Part shown: positions 1-15,428 of the stretch, piece by piece | Layout: the number at the start of each line of letters is the position of its first letter | Numbering within the stretch: position 1 is the first letter of the stretch | Source of the DNA: a virus | Taxonomy: Duplodnaviria; Heunggongvirae; Uroviricota; Caudoviricetes | IMG/VR virus record: IMGVR_UViG_2778261504_000013 | Coordinates: 1 to 15,428 of that record | DNA: 15,428 nucleotides | Direction: 5' to 3' (one strand) | Notes under the pieces: model-generated | The model's database searches: none | The model's input: only the letters and a program-made list of their open reading frames with translations | Told to the model about the DNA's origin: nothing | Position numbers and translations under genes: made by a program

Positions 1-896
<896 letters not shown>

Positions 897-1539: not shown

Positions 1540-2460
1540 ATGATTTTTCTCAGAACTGAAAACGGCATCGAGAAACTTGAAAACTGGGAGAAAATTATAT
1601 CCAGACCAAACTTTGTCACCACTATAGACAAAGGAGTTCAACAACTTGAGGAGATAATTGGTTACTACAAATTTAAAGAAGAAATCCACTGTGGTCTAAC
1701 TGGTTGCAACCAACCACATCAAATGGGTTATATTGTAAAAACATCTAGTGGCATTGAAACCAACATCGGAAATAAATGTGGTAAAAACGAATTTGGTGTG
1801 GAATTTGGTGAAAACGTTCTTAGTTTCAATAAATTTATGCAACTCGAAACCAATCGGGAAATTATTAGCACCGCAAAAAGTAAATGTGAAGAGTGGCAAA
1901 AAAATATTGAAACGATACGAAATATCAAACCCACAATAGATTATCTATCTTCTACCATCGAAAATAGTAAAAATTCCAATTACTCCGGAAGACTTGGTGC
2001 TACAGAAATTCGTTTTTTGACCAAGAGCCAGACAGGCCTTGTAACCCTTTCTGAAGTGGAAACTGATAAGAATACCAAAACAATTCTGTTCGCAATGAAT
2101 GAACACATGCGCGAGTCTGGAGAGGCAATAAGTGAATTCTACATAGGAAAAGTATCATTTAGTCATGTTCTTTTACCAGAAAACAATCTTCGTGATTTTT
2201 TTGTTGCGCTCAAAGAAGATCTAAAAAAAATTCAGTGTATTGATCTACAAACAGCCCCAAGCCCAGAAATTTCTAATGTTGCCAAAATTGCCAGTTCAAT
2301 CGAAGAACGAATCAAGCGATTAAAAAAACTGAAACATGAAGCCAGTAAATTCCTAACTAAAAAAAATCTGCGTCCCATCGCAAACAAAATAAAATACTCA
2401 TCGACAGCGGATGAACTTGAATTCCATAATTTCGAACGCTTTTTAAAAGGGCTGAAATGA
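1540..2460 (+). CDS. Hypothetical protein, AT-rich orphan gene (about 306-310 aa), function unknown
   Basis: Long ORF of clearly lower GC than its flanks; GGAG lies 6 nt upstream of ATG 1540 (the alternative ATG 1528 has no SD); followed by a hairpin terminator. Contains a Cys/His cluster (HCGLTGCNQPHQ ... NKCGKNEFG). I recognise no family. Confidence 0.65.
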   Translation: MIFLRTENGIEKLENWEKIISRPNFVTTIDKGVQQLEEIIGYYKFKEEIHCGLTGCNQPHQMGYIVKTSSGIETNIGNKCGKNEFGVEFGENVLSFNKFMQLETNREIISTAKSKCEEWQKNIETIRNIKPTIDYLSSTIENSKNSNYSGRLGATEIRFLTKSQTGLVTLSEVETDKNTKTILFAMNEHMRESGEAISEFYIGKVSFSHVLLPENNLRDFFVALKEDLKKIQCIDLQTAPSPEISNVAKIASSIEERIKRLKKLKHEASKFLTKKNLRPIANKIKYSSTADELEFHNFERFLKGLK

Positions 2461-2461
2461 T

Positions 2462-2484
2462 AAAAGCCCCGAAAGGGGCTTCTA
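2462..2484. terminator. Bidirectional intrinsic terminator between the convergent orphan gene and Q
   Basis: Stem 2464-2470 (AAGCCCC) pairs with 2475-2481 (GGGGCTT) around a GAAA tetraloop; U-rich flank is better on the minus-strand side (TTTTA), so it may act as the terminator downstream of Q. Confidence 0.6.
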
Positions 2485-2574
2485 TCAAAATCATTTACGC
2501 ATTATTCCGCATGCTTAAAAGCATACATGACAGATTCGGACAAAATCAAGTGCAATGTCGCAAAAACCCTAAGC

Positions 2575-3405
2575 TTAGTTCACATCATCACCAAAACTTG
2601 TCACATTCTGAAAAGCAATATCGGCCTTACGCTCTTCCTGGTGGCAAATGTCAACCAGAGAATCAAGAAACGGCTTCCAATTACGCGTCCATGTCCTGAC
2701 ATGTAGCTCGGGTATCCGCTTCAGTACAACTTTATATACTGTGGTAGACGGTACCGTGGAAAATCCATTTCCGCTGCAACGTTCGCAGATTTTAAACACT
2801 GGCACACCACGCTCGCTTGTGGCTTTGCGGTCCAGTACCTCTCCCTTTCCACCACAACGACACCTGGCACTTATCACTCCCTTCCCTTTACATACATCGC
2901 AAACGACTGGTACAACTTCCGTTACCTCTGTCCATTTCTCCCAGTCTGACGGTCGAACAGCACGGGAGCGACTGGCCCAATATGGTGCTTTACCCCATGG
3001 GTATGAAACCTTACGAATGACCTGCTTACGGGGTGTTAGTCCGGTACCACTGCAACTATGGCATGTTACGCTGGTGTCTGCCGATCGGGAATACTCAGCA
3101 AAAGCAAACTGCGCCAGTACCAGCATACACCAGCCAAATTCACCACCAGCTGCTTTACGCACATTCTTCGGTGCAATTTCCATCGCGTGACGCGCCAGCG
3201 CCTGGACTGCCATCTGCTCATCAGTCTTGCTGATACCGGCCTTCCCGAAGAAGGCCGCCAAGCCAAACCGCTCACGATTGCTGGTGGTACCAATAGCCGC
3301 CATAACATCGGTGCCTGTAAGACGTTCCGGAGAGGTTCCTTTCACATCGTCGCCGATATACATTCCCTGAGGACTGAAGTATTTTAGCGATGCCTCAAGC
3401 TTCAT
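2575..3405 (-). CDS. Late antiterminator Q-like protein with four DnaJ-type CxxCxGxG zinc-finger repeats
   Basis: CHSCSGTG, CDVCKGKG, CRCGGKG and CERCSGNG repeats; last gene of the cro-side operon (the lambda Q position); start overlaps the upstream stop (TAATG). The family assignment is from memory of Q proteins of the Qin/phage 82 type and is not search-verified. Confidence 0.7.
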   Translation of the reverse strand: MKLEASLKYFSPQGMYIGDDVKGTSPERLTGTDVMAAIGTTSNRERFGLAAFFGKAGISKTDEQMAVQALARHAMEIAPKNVRKAAGGEFGWCMLVLAQFAFAEYSRSADTSVTCHSCSGTGLTPRKQVIRKVSYPWGKAPYWASRSRAVRPSDWEKWTEVTEVVPVVCDVCKGKGVISARCRCGGKGEVLDRKATSERGVPVFKICERCSGNGFSTVPSTTVYKVVLKRIPELHVRTWTRNWKPFLDSLVDICHQEERKADIAFQNVTSFGDDVN

Positions 3406-4262
3406 TATTCACACTCCCCAACCAGATTAAGAATAACCGCCGCGCCATTGTCTTTCATATATTCGCCCTTTCCGCTTGCCAAAAACCAACGACACACCTC
3501 CACGGCTTCAGCCCGTGTCACCGGTTTGATGGTCATCAGCAATTTTTCAAGGTAGCGCTCGCGGTCATATACCGATTCGTGATGCTCAGAGTAACCATAC
3601 TCATCGCCCTGTTCTTTAGACGCAGTGTGGCGAACACTGTAGAGCCAGTCCCAGTAAACAAACTCACGAACTACGTCTGACAATGTATGAGGCTCTGGCA
3701 GTACATCACGATAGCCATCAACATATGCACGACGCTGATCATCAATTTCATTCATACGGATGCCATCAATTCTGCCCGCTGTCTTCTCGGCTGCAGTCCA
3801 GCCCCAGAGATGATCGTCGATAAATTTCTGGGAAGACTGGATCACTCGCTCGGCTTCCACATCTTCGAGTGCTGCTTCATAGCTACCAAACGTAGCCCTG
3901 ACTGATGTTGCTTTTTTGATATTCTCCCGGGCGATCCTGATTGCCTGTGCCGGGTTATCCATGCCGATGGTACCGAAAGCAATCTGGAAAGGATCACCAC
4001 CATTCGCCAGCAGATAACGCGAATAGCGTTCCTGGGCCTCTTTTGGGGAAATTTTAATTTTCACCAGCGCAGCCTCAGCAGCATCCAGATGTGCGGGTTC
4101 GTTCAGACGGATAACCTCCAGCACCCAAAGATAAGCATCAGTCTGCTTATGCCCGGTGATTCTCCGTTGCTCTGGCAGGGGCTTGATGTTTGCGAGGGCG
4201 GAGCTGTACGCTGCCGTCGGGATGGTGAATAGTGCTTTATGTTCGTTGTTATCAGTACGCAT
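3405..4262 (-). CDS. Hypothetical phage protein (285 aa), in the nin-like position between primase and Q
   Basis: Translationally coupled at both ends (TAATG overlaps at 4260-4264 and 3403-3407); no recognisable motif. Confidence 0.65.
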   Translation of the reverse strand: MRTDNNEHKALFTIPTAAYSSALANIKPLPEQRRITGHKQTDAYLWVLEVIRLNEPAHLDAAEAALVKIKISPKEAQERYSRYLLANGGDPFQIAFGTIGMDNPAQAIRIARENIKKATSVRATFGSYEAALEDVEAERVIQSSQKFIDDHLWGWTAAEKTAGRIDGIRMNEIDDQRRAYVDGYRDVLPEPHTLSDVVREFVYWDWLYSVRHTASKEQGDEYGYSEHHESVYDRERYLEKLLMTIKPVTRAEAVEVCRWFLASGKGEYMKDNGAAVILNLVGECE

Positions 4263-5230
4263 TACGCAACCGCCTTTTTCTTATGGAAAACCAGCTCTCG
4301 AACCTGATCACCGTTCATGAGCATATTGTTGAAATCATCGTGATCCGGCCAGTACACGCTCACGCGCTGCAGGTCATTCTTTGCCATCAGATTGGCATGA
4401 GCACATTCGCAAGCCGCAGCCAGCCCGGTGGCGCTGTTCTCGTCACGGTCGGCAAAAATAATCAGGTGCAGAACACCAGCTGGTACGCGGAACTTTTTCA
4501 TAAAGCCGCTGTTAATGGTTGCCCAAGTGTTCACGTTATAAATCTGGTGCGCTGACAGCGCTGTTTCGATGCCTTCGGCGATACCCAGAGTGCTAGCAAC
4601 AGGAAACATGCGGATAGCTACAGAACGAGCGTGATCCAAATAGTTATCTTCCTGCAGGGATTTGAGGCGCTTTGCACTGCTACCGATATCTGCTTTTTTA
4701 TCACCATCAAGCAGAGTCTGGTGCAGATAGCACAACTCCCCTTTATCGTCCGTAGCAAGTGAATAAAGAGACTGGAACACACTCCCGTTGTGTCTCTGCC
4801 TGGCATTGAACCGGATCGCCTCAGCAGGAAGACTGAATATTCCACGAGAATTAAGATACGCTGCGCCGGATGTACCACGCAGTGCCTCCAGTTTTGAAAA
4901 CTTGCTCAATACCCGTTTGCGTAAGCTGGTGGCGCTGCTGGTTACCGGGATTTTAACCCGTTGGTAATCATTACCGATCAGGCGGTCTATTTCGGTACAA
5001 ATCTCGTTAAATGGCTTCGCCTGTGTCAGGGTGACAAGTTTCATACCATCGCCACTACCACATACACAGATCCACGTTCCTGCACCGTCGCGGTCATCAA
5101 TTCGGAACTTGCCACGTGCACCGCATACCGGGCATTCACCCTTGAAGTGATTTTTTCCTGTTATCGGCGGCAAGCCGAAGTGCTCTAATATTTCAGGCCA
5201 GCGGCCTTTCGCTGCAGCTGCTGTTTTCAT
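4262..5230 (-). CDS. DNA primase with N-terminal zinc-binding domain and Toprim domain
   Basis: CPVCG ... WICVCGSG zinc-binding motif; Toprim signatures IAEGIETALS and IIFADRDEN (DxD); coupled to the helicase gene. Confidence 0.8.
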   Translation of the reverse strand: MKTAAAAKGRWPEILEHFGLPPITGKNHFKGECPVCGARGKFRIDDRDGAGTWICVCGSGDGMKLVTLTQAKPFNEICTEIDRLIGNDYQRVKIPVTSSATSLRKRVLSKFSKLEALRGTSGAAYLNSRGIFSLPAEAIRFNARQRHNGSVFQSLYSLATDDKGELCYLHQTLLDGDKKADIGSSAKRLKSLQEDNYLDHARSVAIRMFPVASTLGIAEGIETALSAHQIYNVNTWATINSGFMKKFRVPAGVLHLIIFADRDENSATGLAAACECAHANLMAKNDLQRVSVYWPDHDDFNNMLMNGDQVRELVFHKKKAVA

Positions 5231-5231
5231 C

Positions 5232-6890
5232 TTACTGACTCAAACTGTTTATATTTTTCTGGAGTTGTTGCTTTGCTTGCATGATGCGCCAAGCCTCAGT
5301 GCCTATTGGCATCTCGCTTCGCTCACCTCGTTCCTGAGACAGAGGAATCGTTGCCTGCAATTTTTCTATAGTTCTCTGCGTCCGCTGACGGCCTTTGGCA
5401 AACCGAATCAGCTTGTGTTTGATGTAGTTACTTACTTCTGGGCTTATTTCCATCGGGAAACTGCTCAACCCATCAGGCCATTCACCGAATTTCTCCCTGA
5501 AAGTGTGAGCACACCATCCATCACTGACTGGACGCCCCAGCGAAGCACGCTGGCGCTGATAAAATTTGATCTGACTCCACCAGGACTGTTTCTCTGTCTT
5601 CGTCGACTGATGCTGATTTTTACCCAGCTTATTAAGTTTGCGGCTAGTGTCAGTATCAACATCTTCACCTCGCAGCGGCTTGTGTCCACATTTAGGGCAA
5701 ACATAGACGCCAGCTGGCTTCATGTAGTGGCATTGAGGGCATTCATGTGGCAGTTTTTCGGCCCGTTCCTCAACTGCGCGGCGCGCGCTTTCCTCCATGC
5801 CGTCAGACTTACCGGGAAGATCGTCGTACTCGATTGAATCCGGATAACCCAAACGGTGCACGGTGCCGCTGTGATCGAAGATAAGGCAGGACTCTTTACC
5901 CGGTGCGGTGCGCAGCCCACGCCCGAGTGCCTGCAACCAGCGAATTTCGCTTTTTGTTGGCCTGGCGTAGATGATGCAACGAACGTCACTATCAAAGCCG
6001 GCCACCAGAACGCCCACACTAACGATGATTTTCGTTGCACCAGTTTCAAAGCGGTGAATGATGGTCTGGCGCTCATCTACCGGAGTGTCTGCGGTCATTA
6101 CCTCAGCGTTAACACCTGCGAGGTTAAACTGGATTGTCAGGTAATTGGCGTGGGCTACGTTGACGCAGAAAGCGATGGTAGGTAGATCCCGACCATTCTC
6201 CAGCCAGTTCTGTACGATGTCGCCCACCAGCGTAGAGCCGCACATGATTTCAGCCAGCTGTGTTTCGTTGTAATCGCGGCCGTACTCAAGCGAAGATGTG
6301 GTTTTAACACCTTTCAGATCCGGCTTAGTTGGCGCGTAAAATTCGTATTTACTCAGATCGCCACGCTGGATTAACTCGCCGATGGTGGTCGGCTTAATCA
6401 GTCGGTCATAGTATTTGCCCAGGAACGGAGAAAACGGAGTACCCGACAGGCCAATCACCTTTACGCCTTTGCCGCGCAGACGTTCGATATCCTTCAGGAT
6501 GCGTTTTTTACGCAGGTGCGCTTCGTCGATAATCAGCAGATCGATATTTTCAGGAAAAACACGACGAATAAGCGTGTCAGTGCTGGCAATCTGAATTTTC
6601 CGGTCCGGATCGTAGTTCGGGTGATCCGCCCAGATATAACCGATTTCATCTCCAGGTAAACCATACTGCACGAACCGATTAGCCGTCTGACCAATCAGGA
6701 TGGTGTACGGAACACAGAACAGAACACGCATACCACGGCTGACAAAACCAGCAACGATGAAGGCTGCCAGACCCGTTTTACCGCTACCTGTTGGCGAGTA
6801 AACCATGAAGGTGTCGTTTGCCTTCCAGTCACGGCGCAACATGTTTAGCGCTCGCTCCTGTGCAAAATTCGGCGTGATTGTCAGCTGCAT
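5232..6890 (-). CDS. Superfamily 2 (DEAH-type) DNA helicase, replication module
   Basis: Walker A SPTGSGKTG, DEAH box IIDEAH, motif III LSGTPF, motif VI QALGRGLR; C-terminal zinc ribbon CPQCH ... CPKCGH. Confidence 0.85.
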   Translation of the reverse strand: MQLTITPNFAQERALNMLRRDWKANDTFMVYSPTGSGKTGLAAFIVAGFVSRGMRVLFCVPYTILIGQTANRFVQYGLPGDEIGYIWADHPNYDPDRKIQIASTDTLIRRVFPENIDLLIIDEAHLRKKRILKDIERLRGKGVKVIGLSGTPFSPFLGKYYDRLIKPTTIGELIQRGDLSKYEFYAPTKPDLKGVKTTSSLEYGRDYNETQLAEIMCGSTLVGDIVQNWLENGRDLPTIAFCVNVAHANYLTIQFNLAGVNAEVMTADTPVDERQTIIHRFETGATKIIVSVGVLVAGFDSDVRCIIYARPTKSEIRWLQALGRGLRTAPGKESCLIFDHSGTVHRLGYPDSIEYDDLPGKSDGMEESARRAVEERAEKLPHECPQCHYMKPAGVYVCPKCGHKPLRGEDVDTDTSRKLNKLGKNQHQSTKTEKQSWWSQIKFYQRQRASLGRPVSDGWCAHTFREKFGEWPDGLSSFPMEISPEVSNYIKHKLIRFAKGRQRTQRTIEKLQATIPLSQERGERSEMPIGTEAWRIMQAKQQLQKNINSLSQ

Positions 6891-6940
6891 TGTGCTGTCC
6901 CCGCAGTGATGAGATAATAATTTTGTGATGTGGTTTTCAT
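6881..6940 (-). CDS. Possible 19-aa upstream ORF (MKTTSQNYYLITAGTAQCS) coupled to the helicase start
   Basis: Strong SD GAGGAGGAA 5 nt upstream of ATG 6940; its stop overlaps helicase codons 2-3, while the helicase's own SD is weak. Too short to call on coding signal alone. Confidence 0.3.
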   Translation of the reverse strand: MKTTSQNYYLITAGTAQCS

Positions 6941-7001
6941 GGATTCCTCCTCACATGGCTGGTGGTCTCCCCAAAGGCTGCCAGCCCCTTTCCGAATCAA
7001 C

Positions 7002-7370
7002 TCACTTAAATTTCGTCGCACGAATAACGTCAATTCCGTTCTCGCTATATCGAAGAGGGTGCTTACCATCCCTGAGCAGGACAAAACCTGACATCCCCTC
7101 AGGTAGCTGAGCCAGCTTCATCAACGAACGGTTGCGGGGAGACTTCTTATCGACCTCAATGGCACACTGCTGGCCGTCTGATGATGTAACCAAGCAATCA
7201 ATAAACCCTTTACGACCACCGCTAATGCTGATGCTGAAATTGCGTTGCAGGTGGTATCCCTGAGACTTGATTTTTTTCTGCATCACATAATCGAAAACGA
7301 CTTTGTCATCGGAGCGGATGAATTGCTCTTCCAGGAGAGCGATTAAATTTTGCTTCAGGTCTTCACTCAT
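7002..7370 (-). CDS. Small protein with possible PD-(D/E)xK / VRR-NUC-like nuclease core, upstream of the helicase
   Basis: Segment GRKGFIDCLVTSSDGQQCAIEVDKKS ... Q ... GFVLL resembles the VRR-NUC core; the track's start at 7406 is TTG, so ATG 7370 is preferred. Family assignment is low confidence. Confidence 0.5.
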   Translation of the reverse strand: MSEDLKQNLIALLEEQFIRSDDKVVFDYVMQKKIKSQGYHLQRNFSISISGGRKGFIDCLVTSSDGQQCAIEVDKKSPRNRSLMKLAQLPEGMSGFVLLRDGKHPLRYSENGIDVIRATKFK

Positions 7371-7619
7371 ACTTTTTATCCATCTTGTACTAGCTTTCTG
7401 GTACAATCGTTTTTTCAGGGGTATCCCCCTTTAGATCGAGATCTACCTAACCTATGTACCCGTCTGTTGGAAAAGCCTGTTCCAGTGCTTCGCACTAACA
7501 CACGGGCACTCCTCCCCCTCCCCTCCTCTCACTGAATTTTGCATGTACTCCTTAGCTAGTACACAAAATGCAATGAGATTTGGGATTCAGCCACCGGACA
7601 CCTTTAAGCCCGGTACCAA

Positions 7620-7913
7620 TCAGGAGCGCGATTGCGTTCCTGCCAGGGGCGGCTGAGTTGTATACCCCTGTAAAGCTCTGCCCTGATTTCTCACGAACAG
7701 GCGGAGCCTTGTGTTTGCTTCATGCCTTGCTCTGTTCTCCTTACGGAATGAAACAGGCTCAGCGTCAAAAGTGATTTCGTATACCTCCGCATATTTCAGG
7801 GCGACCTTCCGTCTCAGTGACGGAGGCAGCCCCTGTAACTGCTGCTGAATCCACTCTTTGTCTGCCTGGCAGTACCTAGATGGCATCTCTGTCTGAACGT
7901 AATTCTGGGACAT
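7620..7913 (-). CDS. Hypothetical early protein (97 aa) immediately downstream of cro
   Basis: ORF with GGAGGTGA upstream of ATG 7913; overlaps the cro 3' end by 38 nt; in the cII-like position but with no resemblance to lambda CII. Confidence 0.5.
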   Translation of the reverse strand: MSQNYVQTEMPSRYCQADKEWIQQQLQGLPPSLRRKVALKYAEVYEITFDAEPVSFRKENRARHEANTRLRLFVRNQGRALQGYTTQPPLAGTQSRS

Positions 7914-8163
7914 ACAAGCCCTTCACCTCCCCCGTGCGCGCTAAGCTTGGATGTGGAAAAAGCTCTGGTAGGTCTGGACGAAATTCATACGCTTGGATCT
8001 TTCCGTCTACAGCTGCAACCAATAACGGCACAAATTCTGGTGAAATCTTGTTCTTGCAGTTCAACCAATCGCAGACTGTTGACTGGGCCTTTCCGCATCG
8101 CTTGGCTAAGGCTTGCTGACTTCCAAGAATCTCAATAGCTTTCTCTATGGCTTTATGTTTCAT
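7876..8163 (-). CDS. cro: Cro-like HTH repressor (Cro/YdaS type)
   Basis: 95 aa, HTH SQQALAKRCGKAQSTVCDWLN; divergent from the cI-like gene; AGGAGA SD upstream of ATG 8163 (the track's upstream extension is less likely). Confidence 0.7.
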   Translation of the reverse strand: MKHKAIEKAIEILGSQQALAKRCGKAQSTVCDWLNCKNKISPEFVPLLVAAVDGKIQAYEFRPDLPELFPHPSLARTGEVKGLYVPELRSDRDAI

Positions 8164-8185
8164 AATCGCATCTCCTATTGAACGC

Positions 8186-8214
8186 ATAATAACAACAGGA
8201 AAAGCGATATTCAA
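8186..8214 (-). promoter_or_regulatory. Candidate PR-like sigma70 promoter for cro (TTGAAT-17-TATTAT on the minus strand)
   Basis: Read on the minus strand: -35 TTGAAT (8209-8214), 17-nt spacer, -10 TATTAT (8186-8191), about 25 nt upstream of the cro start. Confidence 0.5.
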
Positions 8215-8230
8215 CGTTAAACCTAGAATA

Positions 8231-8250
8231 TTTATCGGAAAGCCGATAAA
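8231..8250. promoter_or_regulatory. Operator: perfect 20-bp palindrome TTTATCGGAAAGCCGATAAA in the cro-cI intergenic region
   Basis: 8+4+8 inverted repeat seen directly; its 14-bp core ATCGGAAAGCCGAT matches two sites at the promoter downstream of cI (11/14 to the 9028-9041 site). Confidence 0.55.
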
Positions 8251-8282
8251 CTAGCCAAGATAGAGAGGGGAGGAAAATCGCA

Positions 8283-8975
8283 ATGACATTTTCAGAACGA
8301 CTTGATTTAGCTATGCGCAACGCAAAATTTACGCAAGGTAGGCTGGCCAAAGAAGTGGGTATGGCTCAGTCCAGTGTTAATCAACTACTTAACAAAGCCA
8401 ACGGTTCCAGAAAAACAGTCGAAATAGCAAAAGTTTTGGGCGTTAACCCGGAATGGCTCGCATCGGGTGTTGGCCCAATGGAAATCGTGACCTCTGCAGA
8501 CTCACACCAAATACGTAACATTTCTGAAGATTGGGTTACTGATTCGTATGTCGTGGATGTTTTAGACATCAGATATAGTTGCGGACCTGGTAGTTATAAC
8601 TCTGATTTTCCTGACATTGTCAGATCTATAGCTATAGAACCAGGATACGCATCAAGAGTTTTTGGCGGCAGACCAGCATCAGCAATCAAAGCAATAAACG
8701 CCCACGGCGACAGTATGAAAGGCACAATAGACCCTGAAGACTTGGTATTTGTAGATGTATCAGTTCGCACATTTAATGGTGATGGTATATACGCCTTTAC
8801 ATACTCTGGAACATCGCACATCAAAAGACTTCAAAAAATCAAAGATACTCTAACGGTGATATCTGACAACCCAGCTTACAAGGATTGGGCTATCGAACCG
8901 GAAGACTTCGAACAACTTCACATTGACGGAAAAGTAATTGTCAGTTGGCCTATGACACTACACCGTTTTGCATAA
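8283..8975 (+). CDS. cI: CI-type prophage repressor: N-terminal HTH plus C-terminal S24 (LexA-like) autopeptidase
   Basis: HTH QGRLAKEVGMAQSSVNQL; S24 catalytic Ser in AHGDSMKG and Lys in HIKRL; possible Cys-Gly cleavage site (YSCGPG); strong SD GGGGAGGA; divergent from cro. Confidence 0.85.
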   Translation: MTFSERLDLAMRNAKFTQGRLAKEVGMAQSSVNQLLNKANGSRKTVEIAKVLGVNPEWLASGVGPMEIVTSADSHQIRNISEDWVTDSYVVDVLDIRYSCGPGSYNSDFPDIVRSIAIEPGYASRVFGGRPASAIKAINAHGDSMKGTIDPEDLVFVDVSVRTFNGDGIYAFTYSGTSHIKRLQKIKDTLTVISDNPAYKDWAIEPEDFEQLHIDGKVIVSWPMTLHRFA

Positions 8976-8993
8976 GCAAAAATCATTTAACCC

Positions 8994-9018
8994 GCCCACT
9001 CTTAAGTGGGCTTTTTTT
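8994..9018 (+). terminator. Intrinsic terminator after cI
   Basis: GCCCACT-CTTA-AGTGGGC perfect stem-loop (8994-9011) followed by T7 (9012-9018). Confidence 0.7.
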
Positions 9019-9027
9019 GGAAGAAAA

Positions 9028-9069
9028 ATCGATAAACCGATTGACAGGTGAAATCGGTAAACCTATTAT
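9028..9069 (+). promoter_or_regulatory. PL-like early promoter (TTGACA-17-TATTAT) with two overlapping operator copies
   Basis: -35 TTGACA 9041-9046, 17-nt spacer, -10 TATTAT 9064-9069; operator-like 14-mers ATCGATAAACCGAT (9028-9041, abutting the -35) and ATCGGTAAACCTAT (9053-9066, over the spacer and -10). Confidence 0.6.
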
Positions 9070-9109
9070 CTTGACATAGGTATCGAACTCACCAAAGCAA
9101 TTATAGAGG

Positions 9110-9529
9110 ATGAGAAAAATGTCATCGTATATGGGGTTACCAACAAATCAGCACGATGCTCTTGAGAATATTCAGCTCTTAGTAGGGGCTGGTGCACTAC
9201 TGTATAGCAGCAATAACCCTGAGTTAATTGAACTTGCCAGCTCCATCCTGGCTGTAACTCAAAAATATAGCCTCACCGCGTCACGTTTATGCAAACAAAA
9301 TTTAGCTATTAATTCCCAGAATCGGATTCGCACCCAACGCGAAGCCTGCGGCTTAACAACCGCCGAACTCGCCAGGCTGCTCGATCTCGATGAAGAAATC
9401 ATCATCCAGTGGGAGAGCGGAGAGTATGAACCAACTATCAGTATGCTTATCCCTCTGGCTAATGTTTTTGGCTGTGACCCAATGTGGTTATTGACTGGTG
9501 CTTATAAACAAAATCAGGAGGAAGCATAA
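9110..9529 (+). CDS. XRE-family HTH protein (C-terminal HTH), first gene of the PL-like operon
   Basis: C-terminal HTH TQREACGLTTAELARLLDLDEEIIIQWESGEYEPT; the start may be ATG 9119, which has better SD spacing; N-terminal domain unknown. Confidence 0.65.
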   Translation: MRKMSSYMGLPTNQHDALENIQLLVGAGALLYSSNNPELIELASSILAVTQKYSLTASRLCKQNLAINSQNRIRTQREACGLTTAELARLLDLDEEIIIQWESGEYEPTISMLIPLANVFGCDPMWLLTGAYKQNQEEA

Positions 9530-9530
9530 G

Positions 9531-9722
9531 ATGAAAATGTTCAAAGGCCTTACCAACGAACCGGAGACAGTTTTTCATCACATTGCCGTACTGCTTGAAG
9601 CGGGGTTAATCATTTCGGCTTCCGGTGATGAAGAATGTGATGAACTTTCGGATGATATCTTTCTACTGGCACAACAATACGCCAGAAGCGCATGCGATGC
9701 ATTTAAGGAGCAAAGAACATGA
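9531..9722 (+). CDS. Small acidic hypothetical protein (63 aa)
   Basis: AGGAGG SD; acidic stretch SGDEECDELSDD; stop overlaps the next start (ATGA). Confidence 0.5.
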   Translation: MKMFKGLTNEPETVFHHIAVLLEAGLIISASGDEECDELSDDIFLLAQQYARSACDAFKEQRT

Positions 9723-9910
9723 AAACTCCATTAAATATTCTTGAGGAAGTGGCAGCACAAATAAAAGAGAATACATCAATGCTTGAATTTATATTTAAGA
9801 ATTCGCCCGACCAAGGAGAGACAGACGATTATTTATGCTGTCTCATTCGCTCCATGAATAAGACCTGTGAAATGGCTTACGAGTATATAGAAACACTACG
9901 CAACGAATAA
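9719..9910 (+). CDS. Small acidic hypothetical protein (63 aa)
   Basis: AAGGAG SD 8 nt upstream; translationally coupled to the preceding ORF. Confidence 0.5.
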   Translation: MKTPLNILEEVAAQIKENTSMLEFIFKNSPDQGETDDYLCCLIRSMNKTCEMAYEYIETLRNE

Positions 9911-10094
9911 AGAACTCTCAATAAAAAATCACACATAAAAACATGACGGCCTCTGGTCGGGGGTTTTCACAACCAGAAAATAATGGTGATGCATGAAAAA
10001 CAGAAGTGCTTATAAAACCGCATTATTAATGGCTAATGCAGGATACTGGTCAGTTGCAATACTGTTTCTCAGGAAAGCATACGGGAAATAACAA

Positions 10095-10454
10095 ATGACA
10101 CATGAACCCATTAATACATATCGTCGCCGTATAGCTGTTGCGGCACTCCATCGAATAAAACGTAAAACAGGTGTTAATCTGCTTATTGTTGACCTTCCTG
10201 ATGGGAACATTACGACCATAGAAATAACTGAACAGTTTATAAACCAGTTGCTGTTACGCTTCGAAGGTATTACCCGTGGCGAATTGGGCCGGGTGGAGGG
10301 TGAAACCGAAATCCACACTGCATACCAGAATGCTATCGGGATTAATCAACATACTGAATACCTGACTGAAACCGGAAAGTTAATTATAGACAACCTTTTT
10401 CAAGAGGTTATTGATTACGCGAAAGAAAAATATATCAGCGGAGGAATTAACTGA
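10095..10454 (+). CDS. Hypothetical protein (119 aa)
   Basis: ORF in the operon after a 184-bp gap; weak SD; stop overlaps the next start (TGATG). Confidence 0.55.
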   Translation: MTHEPINTYRRRIAVAALHRIKRKTGVNLLIVDLPDGNITTIEITEQFINQLLLRFEGITRGELGRVEGETEIHTAYQNAIGINQHTEYLTETGKLIIDNLFQEVIDYAKEKYISGGIN

Positions 10455-10669
10455 TGGCTAATTTATCCCCTGTATCTGTTGTGCACGAAAAAGTGCAGAT
10501 CGTTATGACAATTGAAAATGGCCAAGTCACAGGTGTCTGCAAAGTCCGCGATGGCGAGCTGATTGCCAGCATGGATACATTCATACGGCTGGCAGAAAGA
10601 GCGGGGTATCAGATAACAGCACCTGCTCAGGAGGAAACCGGTGGCATTAACAGCAACACGCATTCCTGA
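10454..10669 (+). CDS. Hypothetical small protein (71 aa), possible partner of the downstream toxin-like ORF
   Basis: Coupled to the upstream gene and overlaps the downstream ORF by 29 nt, the usual antitoxin-toxin geometry; no recognisable motif. Confidence 0.45.
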   Translation: MANLSPVSVVHEKVQIVMTIENGQVTGVCKVRDGELIASMDTFIRLAERAGYQITAPAQEETGGINSNTHS

Positions 10670-10862
10670 GTGGGTGCACCTGCAGGCGGTCCGTGTTCTC
10701 CGCCAGTTCAGAGCCAGACGAATTCATCCCTGTCGTATGCACGGCTCCGGAAACCTGAGTCTGAGGGTTAATCGCCGCTGGCGGCTGCTGTCCCGAGACG
10801 GCGGCCAGAACTGGGAAGTAATGAGCCATGAACGATACAGCAAAGTTAAGGACCGGAAATGA
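10641..10862 (+). CDS. Candidate RelE/HigB-superfamily toxin-like protein (73 aa, GTG start)
   Basis: AGGAGG 7 nt upstream of GTG 10641; C-terminal segment LSLRVNRRWRLLSRDGGQNWEVMSHERY resembles the RelE/HigB core (LRV ... EVMTHKEY). Shorter than typical family members, so it may be degenerate. Confidence 0.4.
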   Translation: MALTATRIPEWVHLQAVRVLRQFRARRIHPCRMHGSGNLSLRVNRRWRLLSRDGGQNWEVMSHERYSKVKDRK

Positions 10863-10892
10863 ACAATAAATCTTCAAACCAAAAGGAGAGTA

Positions 10893-11474
10893 TTGATGAT
10901 TAATTCAACCATTACCCCTGAACCTACATTAACAGGCATCCGTTTTGGTAATCGAATTATTGGCTATTCAACTGCGGTTCGCCAGATCGACAACGGTAAC
11001 TATGACAAACGAATTCCGGACGGGCTCGATCTGATAGCTTGCATTATGGAAGGGATTGAAAGCGGCTGGTTTATGCCGTGTATTGAAAAACAAATCATCC
11101 TATGGCGCTGGCTTGTTGTCGCCGTGTTCATTGCTGAGGAGCAGGAGAAGAACGGGACTGTCGATGTTCAGAATGACAAGGGCGGCGTAGATACAGCCGT
11201 TGTATACACGGGAAAACCCGGTTCAATCAGCATTTATCCGTGGTCTGAGCGCTTCGCGCTCGCTAACCATATCGAGGCGGGCGCAATTGAAAAATACGGG
11301 CCTGACGTTGGTCAGCAGATGGCGCTGCGTATGTATCAGGACATGGTTGTAACTGACGAGAAATGCGGATTCAGGCTGTCAGCGATGGGCCGGGAGGGAC
11401 TCAACATACTACATGACAGCTTCATTGAACTGATTCAGAAAGACGGTATGCCAGACATGCCGGTTATGCACTGA
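10893..11474 (+). CDS. Hypothetical protein (193 aa)
   Basis: AAGGAG SD 7 nt upstream; no recognisable domain. Confidence 0.6.
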   Translation: MMINSTITPEPTLTGIRFGNRIIGYSTAVRQIDNGNYDKRIPDGLDLIACIMEGIESGWFMPCIEKQIILWRWLVVAVFIAEEQEKNGTVDVQNDKGGVDTAVVYTGKPGSISIYPWSERFALANHIEAGAIEKYGPDVGQQMALRMYQDMVVTDEKCGFRLSAMGREGLNILHDSFIELIQKDGMPDMPVMH

Positions 11475-11485
11475 GGTGGACGAAA

Positions 11486-12235
11486 ATGAACATAGTAACG
11501 ATCAATAACAAACAGCTTCCGGCAGTCGAATATCGCGGTCAGCGTGTTGTGACGCTGGCAATGATTGATGAAGTCCACCAGCGCCCGGAAGGTACCGCCC
11601 GTGCTGCGTTTAACCGCAACCGTTCTCACTTTATCAAAGGGGTGGATTTTCTTGAAATGACTGCGGACGTAATACGTACGGAGTCACTTTCTGATGCCTT
11701 TGCCGCGCGAACTGCCAAAGGGATCATTCTTTTCGAGTCTGGTTACCTGATGTTGACGAAGCCTTTTAACGATGCTCTTGCATGGCAGGTTCAGCGCGAA
11801 CTGGTTAACAGCTATTTCCGAACTCACGCGCCGCTGACGGAAATGGAGATGATCGCTGCAATGGCCGCCGATGCCGTTCGCCAGCAGAAGCGCCTGAGTC
11901 ATGTTGAAGAGAAGATCGAAACGGTCACCAAAGCTGTGGAGAACATCAAACGCGGCACAATGCGCACCGGATATGTCGGTTACCGCCAGGTGGTAGCCAA
12001 AAGCGGAATGAGTGACGCCAAGTGTCGGAATCTGGTCAACGCCTACCACATCCCTACCGACACGCACGAATTTATGACTCCGGACGGTCTGTTGTCTCGC
12101 AGGGCTGTCGTCGAGCTTGAGACATTTATGGCGGCGTTCCACCAAATGATGTCAGAGGCTGAACCACGCGGCACACGCTGGTATCACCCGAAGATGGGGC
12201 TTTTTCAGGTAATCGGATGGGAGGATAAAGCATGA
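11486..12235 (+). CDS. ORF6N-domain protein (antirepressor / Rha-like regulator family)
   Basis: N-terminal LAMIDEVHQRPEGTARAAFNRNRSHFIKGVDFLEMT matches the ORF6N pattern (..kRN..rF..g.dF..lt); GAGGTGGA SD; stop overlaps the next start (ATGA). Confidence 0.65.
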   Translation: MNIVTINNKQLPAVEYRGQRVVTLAMIDEVHQRPEGTARAAFNRNRSHFIKGVDFLEMTADVIRTESLSDAFAARTAKGIILFESGYLMLTKPFNDALAWQVQRELVNSYFRTHAPLTEMEMIAAMAADAVRQQKRLSHVEEKIETVTKAVENIKRGTMRTGYVGYRQVVAKSGMSDAKCRNLVNAYHIPTDTHEFMTPDGLLSRRAVVELETFMAAFHQMMSEAEPRGTRWYHPKMGLFQVIGWEDKA

Positions 12236-12801
12236 TCATCCAGTCAAAACTTATTCGCGCCGCTCTGGTGTGCGCTGCTAAAAACGACGTTCGTTATTAC
12301 CTGAACGGTCTTCACATCACGCCAAAACATATTGAGGCAACCAATGGTTTCGTAGCACTGCGCATGACTCACGGCATCCGGACGAAGAAAAACATCATTG
12401 TCCAGTTCGAAGGTGGCGTCCCGGCCAAAGCCGAAACGACAGAGCTGATTTTTAGTAAAGAGCCGATCGCTGTTCATCGCGACCAGTTTCAGCGCCGGCT
12501 GTCCATTACCGGCATTAAATTGGTGGACGGTTGTTTTCCGGATTTGGAACGCATCATTCCGAAAAAATTTGACCTCTGTACACACCCGGTGATCCAGGCG
12601 GGTTACCTGAGTTATCCAGAGAAGATGTTTGGTCGTGAGCGTAAATTTATTCCCGTCCAGTTACGTTCCTCCGGTGACGGGCAAGCGGTCAGAATTCAGT
12701 TTGATTCCATCATCAACTCAATGTATGGCAATCCTGAATTTGTTGTGATGCCTTGTCGTGATCATGGCGATTTCAATGTGGCTCAGGAGCATCCGGAATG
12801 A
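12232..12801 (+). CDS. Truncated DNA polymerase III beta-clamp (DnaN) homologue, domain II plus partial domain III
   Basis: Three collinear matches to E. coli DnaN as I recall it: NDVRYYLNGL vs QDVRYYLNGM; IKLVDGCFPDLERIIPKKFD vs SKLVDGRFPDYRRVLPKNPD; EFVVMPCRD vs AYVVMPMRL. Only 189 aa, lacking domain I. Confidence 0.7.
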   Translation: MIIQSKLIRAALVCAAKNDVRYYLNGLHITPKHIEATNGFVALRMTHGIRTKKNIIVQFEGGVPAKAETTELIFSKEPIAVHRDQFQRRLSITGIKLVDGCFPDLERIIPKKFDLCTHPVIQAGYLSYPEKMFGRERKFIPVQLRSSGDGQAVRIQFDSIINSMYGNPEFVVMPCRDHGDFNVAQEHPE

Positions 12802-12836
12802 AAATCGAATACCAGGACGCCGCAGGAGGTGAATCA

Positions 12837-12920
12837 ATGAGCTGGCCTGATGCAATCGTAACTCTGGGGGTGGTATTCGCAGTAGCGTTTGTTGTGTTCT
12901 CGATTTGTCGATGGGGATAA
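12837..12920 (+). CDS. Small single-pass membrane peptide (27 aa, MSWPDAIVTLGVVFAVAFVVFSICRWG)
   Basis: Strong SD AGGAGGTGA 6 nt upstream of ATG; hydrophobic core typical of a transmembrane helix; below the size cutoff of the ORF track. Confidence 0.4.
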   Translation: MSWPDAIVTLGVVFAVAFVVFSICRWG

Positions 12921-12924
12921 CCAC

Positions 12925-13092
12925 ATGTTCGCTTTGATTCAACGCGGTCAGATATACACGGACAGAGCTGGATACCCCGTGGTGATTACTCGCATCACTG
13001 AGCACTCAGTGTTCTTTCGACGGATGGACGGACGATCCGGGCGGGTACGCATTGGTGAGTTAAACTGCCTGTTCGAACATATTGACCACTAG
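12925..13092 (+). CDS. Small hypothetical protein (55 aa)
   Basis: ATG 12925 with a GGGGA upstream; internal start within the track ORF 12889-13092. Confidence 0.4.
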   Translation: MFALIQRGQIYTDRAGYPVVITRITEHSVFFRRMDGRSGRVRIGELNCLFEHIDH

Positions 13093-13170
13093 GAGTACCG
13101 CAAAATTCTCGCGGACACTGAGCAGGAAAAGCACCTGAAAAAATTACGAGCCATAAAAAGGAAGTAAAGA

Positions 13171-13317
13171 ATGAATAAAGCATTTGAACGATGGGTCCAC
13201 CAGCGTTACGGCAATCGCTATGACCTGACGCGAGATGTTGACGGCTTCTACTGTCGTGAAGTTGTGAAGCGAATGTTTGAAGTGTGGTGCCACTGCCGTG
13301 GGCTGAGTGTTGTGTGA
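13171..13317 (+). CDS. Small Cys-containing hypothetical protein (48 aa)
   Basis: AAGGAAG SD; ORF MNKAFERWVHQRYGNRYDLTRDVDGFYCREVVKRMFEVWCHCRGLSVV; sits just upstream of xis. Confidence 0.4.
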   Translation: MNKAFERWVHQRYGNRYDLTRDVDGFYCREVVKRMFEVWCHCRGLSVV

Positions 13318-13325
13318 GGTGATGT

Positions 13326-13535
13326 ATGGGGCTGGATTGCGTGCCTATATCAACCTACTGCCGCGACGCGGGAGAAACGGTTGATGCCGTTAACAAACGG
13401 ATACAAAGAGGAATATGGAAAGAAGGGGTTCATGTATTAAAAGTCGATGGAGTTAAAGAACGCTGGGTCGACTTAATAGAGGTTTCAAAATGGGCAAGAA
13501 AGAACAAGGATTATTATCTCTGCCAAGAGGAGTAA
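13326..13535 (+). CDS. xis: Excisionase-like protein
   Basis: 69-aa ORF immediately upstream of and overlapping int by 46 nt, as in lambda xis-int; GAGGTGA SD; small basic winged-helix-like sequence. Confidence 0.6.
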   Translation: MGLDCVPISTYCRDAGETVDAVNKRIQRGIWKEGVHVLKVDGVKERWVDLIEVSKWARKNKDYYLCQEE

Positions 13536-14668
13536 CTATTCGTAAGCATAAAACTGCTTCAACACTAGTTATCACTTTCACATATAAAGGGGTTCTTTGC
13601 AGGGAGCCCCTGTCTCGGCTTGAGGCAAATACACGTGGTATTAAATATGCTGAGCGCCTGCTAGGGGAGATACAAAATCAGATCGCCAGTGGAACGTTTG
13701 AATATGCGAAATATTTCCCCAGTTCCAAAAAACTGGAGTTATTCGGTATAGTAAAGAAAACCAAAAATATTAAGTCCTATCTTGATGAATACCTGAAAAT
13801 TTGCATGAACCGCAATCTGTCGCCGTCAACCATTGGCGGTTACGAAAAATGTATATCAGCACTATCAGAGCTACATAAACTACATGTAACAGAATTGACG
13901 CCTGCGGTACTAAAAAATTGGATAGCCAGCCGAAAAACTAAGCTGAAAACAATCAGGAATAACCTGTCATTTCTGCGCAGCGCCATTGATGAGGCTGTAA
14001 CTGATGGCCTGTTGACTATTAACCCGGTAACTCTTGTCAGCGCCAGCCGGTATCACGTGGTCGACAGTAAACCGAACGCCGACGATTACGAAGTTGATCC
14101 GTTTGCGCCTGCGGAAACCAGTGCCATATATCAGCACTGCAAGTATCAGGAATGGCAGAATCTGTTCCGCTTCGCCTTCAATACAGGGCTACGCAGCTCT
14201 GAGCTATGCGCATTACGTTGGACCGATATCGACTTTATAGGTAATACAGCGCACATACAGGCGGCCAGTGTCGTAGGGGTACTTAAAGGCACCAAGACAA
14301 AAGCCGGTACCCGTAAGGTGGAGCTGAACAGTGAGGCGCTGGCGGCCCTGCAGGCGCAGAAGCAATACACCTTTATGAAAAGTGAGTTCATATTCAGCGA
14401 TCCGAAAACGGGAGATCCCTGGACGAACGCCGACGCTATCCGTAAAAAAGCATGGGTGCCGACCCTAAAAAAAGCTGGTGTGCGCTACCGTAACCCGTAC
14501 CAGACGCGCCACACATTCGCCACCAGACACATTAGCCAGGGTGTAAACCTTTTCTGGCTTGCCGGGCAGATGGGGCATAAGGGGCCGGAAATGCTGTTCC
14601 GCAATTACGGTAAATACCTGGCTGAATACGACGGGAAAACCGCAATGGAAGCTGGAATGAAGAAGTGA
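13490..14668 (+). CDS. int: Tyrosine recombinase (phage integrase)
   Basis: Catalytic signature TGLRSSEL (Arg), TRHTFATRH (His-x-x-Arg), HKGPEMLFRNYGKY (His and Tyr nucleophile); N-terminal arm-binding-like region; last gene of the operon. Confidence 0.9.
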   Translation: MGKKEQGLLSLPRGVTIRKHKTASTLVITFTYKGVLCREPLSRLEANTRGIKYAERLLGEIQNQIASGTFEYAKYFPSSKKLELFGIVKKTKNIKSYLDEYLKICMNRNLSPSTIGGYEKCISALSELHKLHVTELTPAVLKNWIASRKTKLKTIRNNLSFLRSAIDEAVTDGLLTINPVTLVSASRYHVVDSKPNADDYEVDPFAPAETSAIYQHCKYQEWQNLFRFAFNTGLRSSELCALRWTDIDFIGNTAHIQAASVVGVLKGTKTKAGTRKVELNSEALAALQAQKQYTFMKSEFIFSDPKTGDPWTNADAIRKKAWVPTLKKAGVRYRNPYQTRHTFATRHISQGVNLFWLAGQMGHKGPEMLFRNYGKYLAEYDGKTAMEAGMKK

Positions 14669-14674
14669 TTTGAA

Positions 14675-14706
14675 GAAAAAACCCGGCAAATGCCGGGTCT
14701 TTTTGA
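14675..14706. terminator. Bidirectional intrinsic terminator between int and the convergent 196-aa gene
   Basis: ACCCGGCA / TGCCGGGT inverted repeat (14681-14698) flanked by an A-run upstream and T5 downstream. Confidence 0.7.
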
Positions 14707-14709
14707 TGG

Positions 14710-15300
14710 TTATTCTGTCGCGCCACCTATCGAAACATAATCATGAAATTGATCGTCAATGAGTCGGTCCTTACAGATAACATGTACAATGTGACGACAA
14801 CAGTTTTCATCATCATACGCACGACCCCAGCGAACAATCTCATCTACAGACAGATCATTCGCACTCCATGGCAAAGTACCTGAAACACCACGCGCACCTG
14901 GACCAAGTATGTCCATAAATTTCTTCGTGCGTGAATTGTAGATCCGTACCTCGGCAATTCGAATGATGCTACTAGCCCAAAGAGCACCACCGGCAATACT
15001 TTGAATGTTATCGCAGATGAGAAACTCATGCTTTCGCGCAAGCATTTTATAGATCTCACGCGCCAAACCTGCTGATTGGAAATCCTGTGCGATAACAGCG
15101 CTTTTCACTTGCTTTCCGGTCATCATCTGACCGTTCTCTTCGATAAAATTAAAGTCGTTGAACTGTATACGACCTATTCTTATCGTTTTGTTATCGTCTA
15201 CCATATCAAGACCCAAGAGGGTATTGACCAGATCCTGCATTGGAACCTTCGAATCAAGAAGGTCACTGCCATAGTCTAAAAAAAGTCGTCGGTGGAACAT
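14710..15300 (-). CDS. Hypothetical protein (196 aa), AT-rich, convergent with int; function unknown
   Basis: Complete ORF (in-frame stop 11 codons upstream of the ATG), no strong SD; no motif I can assign; lies at the att-proximal edge of the prophage or in flanking DNA. Confidence 0.6.
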   Translation of the reverse strand: MFHRRLFLDYGSDLLDSKVPMQDLVNTLLGLDMVDDNKTIRIGRIQFNDFNFIEENGQMMTGKQVKSAVIAQDFQSAGLAREIYKMLARKHEFLICDNIQSIAGGALWASSIIRIAEVRIYNSRTKKFMDILGPGARGVSGTLPWSANDLSVDEIVRWGRAYDDENCCRHIVHVICKDRLIDDQFHDYVSIGGATE

Positions 15301-15428
15301 CCCAGTTGATACACATCCAAGTAGTACTGAAACTCACCAGAACTGACAATGGGTGATGCTGCCAACTTACTGATTTAGTGTATGATGGTGTTTTTGAGGT
15401 GCTCCAGTGGCTTCTGTTTCTATCAGCT

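Follow-up and report, generated by a model that had tools for sequence, protein, structure and literature searches.

In a 15,428-nucleotide stretch of Caudoviricetes DNA (IMG/VR record IMGVR_UViG_2778261504_000013, positions 1 to 15,428; hereafter the window, meaning the whole stretch), which spans the early and immunity region of a lambdoid E. coli prophage, we found that one small gene encodes a protein truly homologous, by profile comparison and modelled fold, to DnaN, the beta sliding clamp of bacteria. As judged from the alignments, this protein, here called the mini-clamp, and its phage family have kept all that is needed for the peptide-binding cleft of the clamp and have shed all that is needed for the ring. 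A soluble, non-ring-forming protein is expected, because domain I and the dimer-interface half of domain III have been lost. Our preferred explanation, to which we give a rough probability of 0.4, is that the mini-clamp is a stand-alone pocket module derived from a bacterial beta clamp, forming no ring and binding a clamp-binding-motif peptide off DNA. Such motifs are the QL[SD]LF-type peptides of the alpha, epsilon and delta subunits of Pol III, of Pol II, IV and V, and of Hda, MutS/MutL and others.

When probed with the single sequence, the similarity to DnaN was weak but specific. Using phmmer against the Protein Data Bank (PDB), E. coli DnaN was the top match (E 0.003), with residues 5-114 placed on DnaN 136-253 in an alignment running through the motifs DVRYYLNG and KLVDGxFPDxxRxxPK. 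The TIGR00663 dnaN profile aligned its positions 136-252 with residues 6-113 (E 1.9e-4; 20.5 bits, cut-off 137.65) and Pfam DNA_pol3_beta_2 (PF02767) gave E 0.0047 and 17.6 bits with a cut-off of 27, while the Pfam scan of the mini-clamp gave no match to PF00712. PF02767 was matched at E <= 0.01 by 24 of 81 diverse family members and PF02768 by one of them. With a profile made from 39 family sequences, hmmsearch of the PDB found E. coli DnaN at E 1.2e-12, and hhalign of a 151-sequence family alignment against E. coli DnaN gave a probability of 99.5% (E 2.4e-22). The AlphaFold2 model had a mean predicted local distance difference test score (pLDDT) of 91.2 and a predicted template modelling (TM) score of 0.87, and when compared with the PDB by Foldseek the beta clamps made up 50 of the 50 matches listed (E about 3e-6, probability 1.0). 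The mini-clamp scores far below the curated DnaN family cut-offs (TIGR00663, PF02767), though it has the homology and the fold of a clamp. A first-pass annotation of the window, made from its letters alone, had pointed to three segments collinear with DnaN and had proposed profile and structure comparison as the check; all three segments were found (DVRYYLNG, KLVDG..FPD..R..PK and the C-terminal VVMPxR strand), and both kinds of comparison returned the clamp.

The part of DnaN that follows domain II in the mini-clamp was defined by hhalign of half-domains taken separately. Residues 112-180 matched DnaN 310-366 with a probability of 96.5% (E 8e-10), compared with only 0.8% for DnaN 245-316, and in the global profile alignment of the family about residues 259-314 of DnaN were skipped. 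The family consensus 'ig.N..YL' corresponds to 'IGFNVSYVL' of DnaN (with N320 and Y323) and 'VVMPxR' to its C-terminal strand. An HMMER local placement of residues 116-150 on DnaN 253-289 was overruled by these half-domain profile-profile tests and the conserved N..Y motif. As modelled by AlphaFold2, the C-terminal unit comprises a strand, a helix (123-133) and three further strands (142-146, 153-157 and 169-172), with an extra short helix at 159-164 beside the exposed side of the protein; towards the tail that follows, pLDDT drops to 78 in the penultimate 10-residue block and to 53 in the final one, and the tail varies in length and sequence among homologues. The earlier description of the product as 189 residues lacking domain I agrees with the open reading frame (ORF) list and with the hhalign alignment, which covers no domain I. 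Its assignment as domain II plus partial domain III was right in naming domain II and a part of III, and has to be specified in that the surviving part is the second half of domain III.

Both canonical dimer-interface elements are missing in this alignment, namely domain I and the first half of domain III, the latter with I272 and L273, whose mutation makes beta monomeric (PMC11139829). Because of these losses the mini-clamp has no canonical dimer interface, in line with the prior statement that a normal head-to-tail dimer could not be formed. The peptide pocket of DnaN is built from residues of domain II together with residues of the second half of domain III (PMC11139829), so that the retained pieces are spatial neighbours making up about a quarter of the ring, or three of the 12 structural repeats of a clamp ring. 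In PMC2685083 the clefts are described as destroyed in beta lacking its last five residues, and this cleft-essential C-terminal strand is kept in the mini-clamp as VVMPCR.

We next consider the pocket itself, which in DnaN consists of subsite I (R152, L155, T172, G174, H175, R176, L177, P242, R246, V247, V360 and M362) and subsite II (H175, N320, Y323, V344, M362, P363, M364 and R365), with H175 bridging the two (PMC11139829). In the family alignment against DnaN, aligned counterparts were present for 18 of these 18 published residues, and 11 of them were identical in the protein from the window (R152, L155, T172, G174, P242, R246, Y323, V360, M362, P363 and R365), at an identity of 27% over the whole alignment. 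Using the alignment of 151 members, having a median identity to the query of 29%, the four most conserved columns were the equivalents of R152, G174, P242 and M362, and pocket positions accounted for 11 of the 24 most conserved columns. The mean entropy was 1.33 bits for pocket columns as compared to 2.78 bits for the others (Mann-Whitney p = 8e-7).

The mini-clamp ORF is an intact gene under strong purifying selection, with a ratio of non-synonymous to synonymous substitution rates (dN/dS) of 0.05-0.19 as determined against homologues of 70-97% identity. Near-identical DNA was found in 60-61 of 5,426 complete E. coli genomes. The protein matched PHROG 3007 at E 9.9e-65 over residues 1-179, and both the full-length profile match and the length of 170-210 residues place it in this family of short phage proteins called 'beta clamp domain-containing protein', a name that RefSeq gives to copies with 99.3% nucleotide identity and also to family member P0030. 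An exhaustive profile search returned 6,878 cluster representatives at E <= 0.001, 978 at E <= 1e-10 and 34 at E <= 1e-30 (clusters at 50% identity, the weakest matches probably including real DnaN proteins); the best 150 of the 978 clusters were nearly all 170-210 residues long with end-to-end matches. The family was found by tblastn in 217 phage records, mainly of Salmonella, Escherichia, Klebsiella and Vibrio phages, and many phage proteins of 180-210 residues in BFVD superposed on the mini-clamp model with TM scores of 0.7-0.82. The idea of a truncated clamp in the sense of a one-off prophage fragment did not hold, as this is a large family of fixed architecture with members in temperate as well as virulent phages.

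The position of the gene differs among its carriers. In Deseoctovirus and Segzyvirus it is the last gene of a short operon that has a ParB-like gene first, and in Vibrio phage X29 its neighbours are genes for exonuclease, Dam and SSB (single-stranded DNA-binding protein). In the virulent siphoviruses of Dhillonvirus (TheodorHerzl, L004 4971-5489) it is found alone and antisense to the surrounding structural genes (capsid, spanin), as it is in those of Kagunavirus (Schulenburg, L143 4965-5486), where the lone antisense gene is bracketed by its own annotated terminators in the manner of an accessory gene with independent expression. Such placement suggests an accessory function, not a core part of a replisome. 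Dhillonvirus encodes its own Pol I, and some carriers encode Pol I, SSB and helicases; in the window and the annotated homologous region no polymerase gene was seen. With carriers of both kinds, the mini-clamp is not tied to a phage polymerase. Two apparent fusion proteins (P0013 and P0035), considered as clues to a partner, were read-through or spurious extensions and uninformative.

Members of this family have been annotated in three incompatible ways, as 'DNA polymerase III beta subunit', as 'RusA-like Holliday junction resolvase' and as 'hypothetical protein'. The clamp similarity is thus already in the databases, with RefSeq and GenBank calling some members beta-clamp-like; the first of the three labels overstates and the second is unsupported. 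The RusA label belongs to PHROG 3007 and is repeated in many GenBank phage records (H18, H20-H22, H24, H28, H31, H40-H42), including that of X29, which nonetheless carries its own note 'similar to DNA clamp; PF02767'. Among the RusA families in Pfam there was no match for the mini-clamp (E <= 1) or for any of the 81 diverse members (E <= 0.01), and we rejected a resolvase identity on these grounds and on the beta-clamp fold; the label looks like a propagated misannotation. In the literature searched for a characterised short or phage clamp homologue we found annotation-level mentions only and no published function, and the texts searched described neither the joining of domain II to the pocket half of domain III nor a cleft that is selectively kept.

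Compared with E. coli DnaN (366 residues; PDB 1MMI, 2POL), the mini-clamp shares domain II, the last beta-alpha-beta-beta-beta unit of domain III, the motifs and the pocket, but it is half as long, basic, and encoded by phages among accessory or early genes, and of the three tandem domains of DnaN it lacks domain I, the first half of domain III and the canonical dimer interface. With the interfaces missing, a closed, DNA-encircling and loader-loaded ring is unlikely for the mini-clamp, to judge from the alignment. A shorter in-frame product of E. coli dnaN, beta*, reportedly described by Skaliter, Paz-Elizur and Livneh in J Biol Chem in 1996, is said to consist of domains II and III and to act as a trimer, forming a ring and serving as processivity factor. 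The phage protein resembles beta* in lacking domain I and in its starting point, which is nearly the same, its N-terminus falling on DnaN 128-136; the ring of beta* is, however, said to have a complete domain III, whereas the first half of domain III, with the interface, is absent from the mini-clamp. A further point of comparison is UL42 of herpes simplex virus (HSV), which is built of two whole PCNA-like domains and invariably accompanied by the gene of its polymerase, in contrast to the one and a half domains of the mini-clamp, found with or without a polymerase gene. UL42 is a viral monomeric processivity factor with the clamp fold (Kazlauskas et al. 2016, PMC4889955) and thereby a precedent for a non-ring viral clamp derivative that binds a polymerase peptide. 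In that same study, Kazlauskas, Krupovic and Venclovas left open the role of stand-alone phage homologues of PolIII-beta in phages that encode no polymerase (PMC4889955). One phage protein of the same kind as the mini-clamp, gp20 of Burkholderia phage AH2 (209 residues), is annotated 'DNA polymerase III beta subunit' (PMC3483164), and in BFVD its model (I6NLH9) matched that of the mini-clamp at E 6e-7 with a TM score of 0.71; those reports end at annotation. A clamp pocket that works off the ring has been seen with monomeric I272A/L273A beta, which was crystallised with the clamp-loader subunit delta (PDB 1JQL), the LF plug of delta being bound in the pocket (PMC11139829); clients can thus be bound by a clamp pocket outside a ring. 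That protein, as the mini-clamp is expected to do, closes no ring yet keeps its pocket, but it was made in the laboratory by point mutation and has all three domains, whereas in the mini-clamp the interface is deleted altogether. A phage use of the contact between clamp pocket and peptide outside replication is described in PMC12867686, where the late activator MuC of phage Mu is a clamp-binding-motif protein using the host clamp; there, MuC supplies a peptide to the host pocket, whereas here the phage would supply the pocket.

In our preferred explanation, early expression of the leftward operon upon induction or infection would supply the mini-clamp, whose cleft would then bind a peptide of the clamp-binding-motif type off DNA, most likely from a host clamp client. 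That client might be competed away from the host clamp, with the mini-clamp acting as a decoy, or be held for the phage, with the mini-clamp acting as an adaptor. For this prophage we favour the decoy or competitor version, owing to the early-left position of the operon and the accessory-gene look of the family. Among the mechanisms proposed in the first-pass annotation, sequestration of clamp-binding proteins would fit the evidence best, because the pocket for clamp-binding motifs is the most conserved feature of the family. The analysis establishes the homology, the architecture, the conservation of the pocket, the purifying selection, the place in the operon and how broad the family is; what we infer here comprises peptide binding by the pocket, the monomeric state, the identity of the partner and the choice between inhibition and recruitment.

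Several observations weigh against this explanation. The pocket residues are the best conserved ones in DnaN generally and anchor the alignment, so that any true clamp homologue would be expected to show some of this enrichment. In the protein from the window the pocket carries the changes R176 to V, V344 to G, M364 to C and N320 to Q, and codon 40 (12349-12351), the equivalent of H175, does not encode His in the E. coli clade including the window, as it does in 89% of the family. Within that clade, 15 distinct alleles being 96-100% identical (from loci L006, L007, L061-L078, L117 and L132) had TTC (F, seven alleles, with the window), TCC (S, seven) or TGC (C, one), differing in the middle base, and more distant relatives had CAC/CAT (H), TAC (Y) or CGT (R); this is the only evenly split amino-acid polymorphism of the gene. 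The pocket changes of the E. coli clade may mean an altered specificity or a decay of the pocket, and the variable residue (F, S or C) could represent tuning of client specificity. One E. coli strain has a frameshifted copy. Removal of half of domain III should leave the hydrophobic core partly exposed, making self-association possible. The canonical clamp-binding motif was absent at the termini of the proteins of this prophage and of the Dhillonvirus replication proteins, where only internal, chance-like matches were seen, and no phage-encoded partner is therefore evident. Finally, the mini-clamp is basic, with an isoelectric point (pI) of 9.1 and a net charge of about +5 as compared to a pI of 5.25 for DnaN; such a charge is superfluous for a pure peptide decoy and points towards binding of nucleic acid.

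It is this charge that brings in the main competing explanation, a monomeric tether resembling UL42 with its basic surface on DNA and its pocket holding an enzyme, so that local concentration or processivity would be raised without a ring. Virulent phages would use it to hold their own Pol I, and this prophage to hold Pol III or Pol I of the host. The conserved pocket, the equivalent of DnaN loop 148-152 (AKNDVR), which is conserved in the family, and those carriers that have their own Pol I, SSB and helicases, or that place the gene as X29 does, are all consistent with it. The family has a median pI of 8.4, but also a 25th percentile of 6.4 and a 5th percentile of 5.05, leaving about a quarter of its members acidic or neutral, and the gene is mostly not adjacent to replication genes, lying in the early-left operon here and alone and antisense in Dhillonvirus and Kagunavirus. 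No canonical clamp-binding motif was found in Pol I, the helicases or SSB of Dhillonvirus. We regard the tether as rather unlikely, and it is still more doubtful that the mini-clamp assembles by itself into a ring or half-ring, for instance by two-fold dimers formed through the exposed half of domain III, of which two would give twelve repeats, as a loader-independent or phage-specific sliding clamp. Four times three repeats does arithmetically equal the 12 of the known clamp rings, and a half-domain deletion should leave a partner-seeking surface; the reported trimer of beta* in E. coli would be a further point in favour of a ring. Judging by clamp geometry, however, the repeats alternate in orientation, and an odd number per chain would close no simple cyclic ring, permitting only head-to-head and tail-to-tail contacts; both canonical interface elements are gone, AlphaFold2 was confident for the monomer, with the short helix 159-164 by the exposed side, and inspection of the window and of five regions from virulent phages and a Vibrio phage showed no clamp-loader gene beside the mini-clamp. 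Less probable again is a poison subunit, as had been suggested in the first-pass annotation, which would heterodimerise with host DnaN, inserting itself or forming a cap, so that the ring could not close or be loaded and host replication would be arrested. By analogy with lambda, the prophage operon from which this clamp homologue is expressed early would carry host-modulating genes, and the free edges of the fragment would, from the hhalign alignment, normally pack against clamp repeats. The structural basis for that suggestion is nevertheless lost together with the parts that make the DnaN-DnaN interface (domain I and the I272/L273-bearing half of domain III), and in the host dimer each surface complementary to such a free edge is already filled by a part of its own chain. 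As lambdoid phages replicate with the host Pol III holoenzyme and depend on it, a general clamp poison would also harm the phage itself.

We also considered whether the partner could be the product of the neighbouring antirepressor-like gene, with its C-terminal motif RWYHPKMGLFQVIGWE docking in the mini-clamp pocket and the two proteins forming a regulatory unit. Of the 104 related loci listed (mostly enterobacterial prophages, and biased towards close relatives), 80 had an antirepressor-like gene directly 5' of the mini-clamp gene, nearly all with a 4-nt ATGA overlap, and the same pair occurs between cI and int, again in the early-left operon, in Providencia phage PSTCR3, at a mini-clamp identity of only 31%. 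The motif showed five synonymous as compared to one or two non-synonymous codon changes, suggesting purifying selection at the peptide level; in the form (R/K)WxHPKMG(L/I/S)FQxIGWE (12163-12231) it was kept from E. coli to Providencia, Xenorhabdus and Photorhabdus (upstream ORFs of L005, L012 and L019), and it bears a loose likeness to clamp-binding motifs, for example QLGLF and AMSLF. An otherwise unrelated small protein with paired Cys-x-x-Cys motifs, encoded 5' of another mini-clamp (L080), ends in a similar way, with HPAVGRFQII. Against such a unit, the C-terminal domain of the antirepressor is about eight times more widespread in E. coli than the mini-clamp (469 genomes, mostly in Rha family regulator annotations and plasmids, compared with 61) and mostly occurs without it. 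In the AlphaFold2 model of the antirepressor, having an overall pLDDT of 49 and usable for the C-terminal domain only (pLDDT about 75), RWYH and GLF were placed with moderate confidence as beta strands inside that folded domain and formed no free tail. The penultimate position of the motif varies (L, I, S, R or G), though genuine clamp-binding motifs use it as a key anchor (PMC11139829), four unrelated C-terminal types of antirepressor precede nearly identical mini-clamps, and the virulent-phage members have no such neighbour. Docking of this tail in the pocket is unlikely, and we give the regulatory unit little credence. As for a decayed, functionless dnaN remnant or a RusA-type resolvase, the single frameshifted E. 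coli copy and the PHROG 3007 label repeated in GenBank would be in their favour, but the dN/dS values, a length held fixed over 978 clusters (the best 150 nearly all of 170-210 residues), the beta-clamp fold and the 81 members tested, with none matching RusA and 24 matching DNA_pol3_beta_2, refute both as far as sequence analysis reaches.

In bacteria, replication and repair both centre on the beta clamp, which is also a drug target. To our knowledge, every known clamp partner binds one pocket, by means of a short motif. If the mini-clamp does act as a free-standing pocket, this would be a new viral route for interfering with or borrowing the host replisome and a natural minimal scaffold for studying or screening ligands of the clamp pocket, and it would answer the question raised in 2016 regarding stand-alone PolIII-beta homologues in phages without a polymerase (PMC4889955). 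A broader proposal, that we put forward as doubtful, is that phages have repeatedly kept the ring-incompetent pocket module as a soluble receptor for clamp-binding motifs, titrating or capturing host clients (e.g. Hda, delta, MutS/MutL or translesion polymerases) and reprogramming host replication and repair early; if true, this would be the first natural protein aimed at the clients of a sliding clamp instead of at the clamp itself. The family as such is real, widespread, uncharacterised and experimentally tractable, with a function that we infer.

The features of the window are summarized in Table 1. The early phage operon assumed at the outset could be specified as the early-left operon of a lambdoid prophage, from the repressor gene, the terminator-like hairpin, the promoter-like site and a run of small + strand genes with xis and int at its end; the promoter-like site, a strong one lying 3' of that hairpin, is likely, going by its consensus match, to be the early-left promoter of the operon that includes the mini-clamp gene.

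Table 1. Features of the window, with residue numbers of the mini-clamp equated to those of E. coli DnaN where given.
Feature	Position	Strand	Basis
Mini-clamp coding sequence (189 residues; stop codon included)	12232..12801	+	ORF list and translation; ATG start
Equivalent of domain II (DnaN about 128-258), residues 1-116	12232..12579	+	phmmer, profile search, hhalign
Second half of domain III (DnaN 315-366), residues 117-177	12580..12762	+	hhalign of C-terminal unit
Variable C-terminal tail, residues 178-189, no DnaN counterpart	12763..12798	+	low model confidence
Subsite I residues R21=R152, L24=L155, T37=T172, G39=G174, F40=H175, P103=P242, R107=R246, I108=V247	in 12232..12579	+	
Subsite II residues Q122=N320, Y125=Y323, M173=M362, P174=P363, C175=M364, R176=R365; plus V171=V360	in 12580..12762	+	
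Antirepressor-like gene (249 residues; ORF6N N-terminal domain and a C-terminal domain)	11486..12235	+	Pfam ORF6N E 1.9e-12; PHROG 1726 anti-repressor E 6e-70
Small hydrophobic ORF (40 residues; one hydrophobic stretch, AIVTLGVVFAVAFVVFSI)	12798..12920	+	sequence; annotated by RefSeq in E. coli E110019
Excisionase	13326-13535	+	PHROG 2917 E 2.5e-41
Tyrosine integrase	13490-14668	+	Pfam Phage_integrase, Arm-DNA-bind_2
cI-like repressor (helix-turn-helix and S24 peptidase, LexA family), marking the immunity region	8283..8975	+	Pfam Peptidase_S24 E 7.5e-17; RefSeq 'LexA family transcriptional regulator'
Terminator-like hairpin 3' of the repressor gene	8994-9011	+	sequence scan
Promoter-like site, TTGACA, 17-nt spacer, TATTAT (11/12 matches)	9041..9069	+	consensus scan only
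Cro/YdaS-like gene		-	
SF2 (ResIII/DEAD) helicase	5232-6890	-	
Zn-ribbon/DUF7146/Toprim primase-like gene	4262-5230	-	
Q antiterminator	2575-3405	-	

The mini-clamp gene shares its start with the end of the ORF6N gene 5' of it, ATG and TGA overlapping in gcATGAtc, and has GGGAGGA 6-7 nt before its ATG, in keeping with the translational coupling that had been proposed. Its own TGA overlaps the ATG of the small hydrophobic ORF, which was the source of the predicted downstream membrane peptide and was likewise seen here. This ORF has an internal ATG at 12838 with AGGAGG 5' of it at good spacing, and by this reading its real product may be a 27-residue single-pass membrane peptide. It was not conserved over the related loci, having unrelated genes in its place elsewhere. 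A role for the mini-clamp as component of a defence system was rejected, as the PADLOC-DB defence models gave no match for the gene or its immediate neighbours.

Elsewhere in the window, the replication module (4262-6890, - strand) is not of the lambda O/P type and is followed by a 285-residue PHROG 6204 protein. At the left edge of the window, beside the late-regulation region, a gene for an IstB-like ATPase (the helper of the IS21 family; Pfam E 2.5e-90) at 96-896 suggests an insertion sequence next to or within the prophage. A small ORF at 10641-10862 matched only PHROG 1525 here, with no PADLOC match, and is named 'ParE family toxin-like protein' by RefSeq in the homologous region of E. 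coli E110019. That strain (L001) has the closest genome copy of the mini-clamp gene (13001-13569, 99.8% identity), annotated as frameshifted, and carries an IS3-family transposase (13784-14997) inserted just 3' of it, between the small peptide ORF and a DUF4222 gene.

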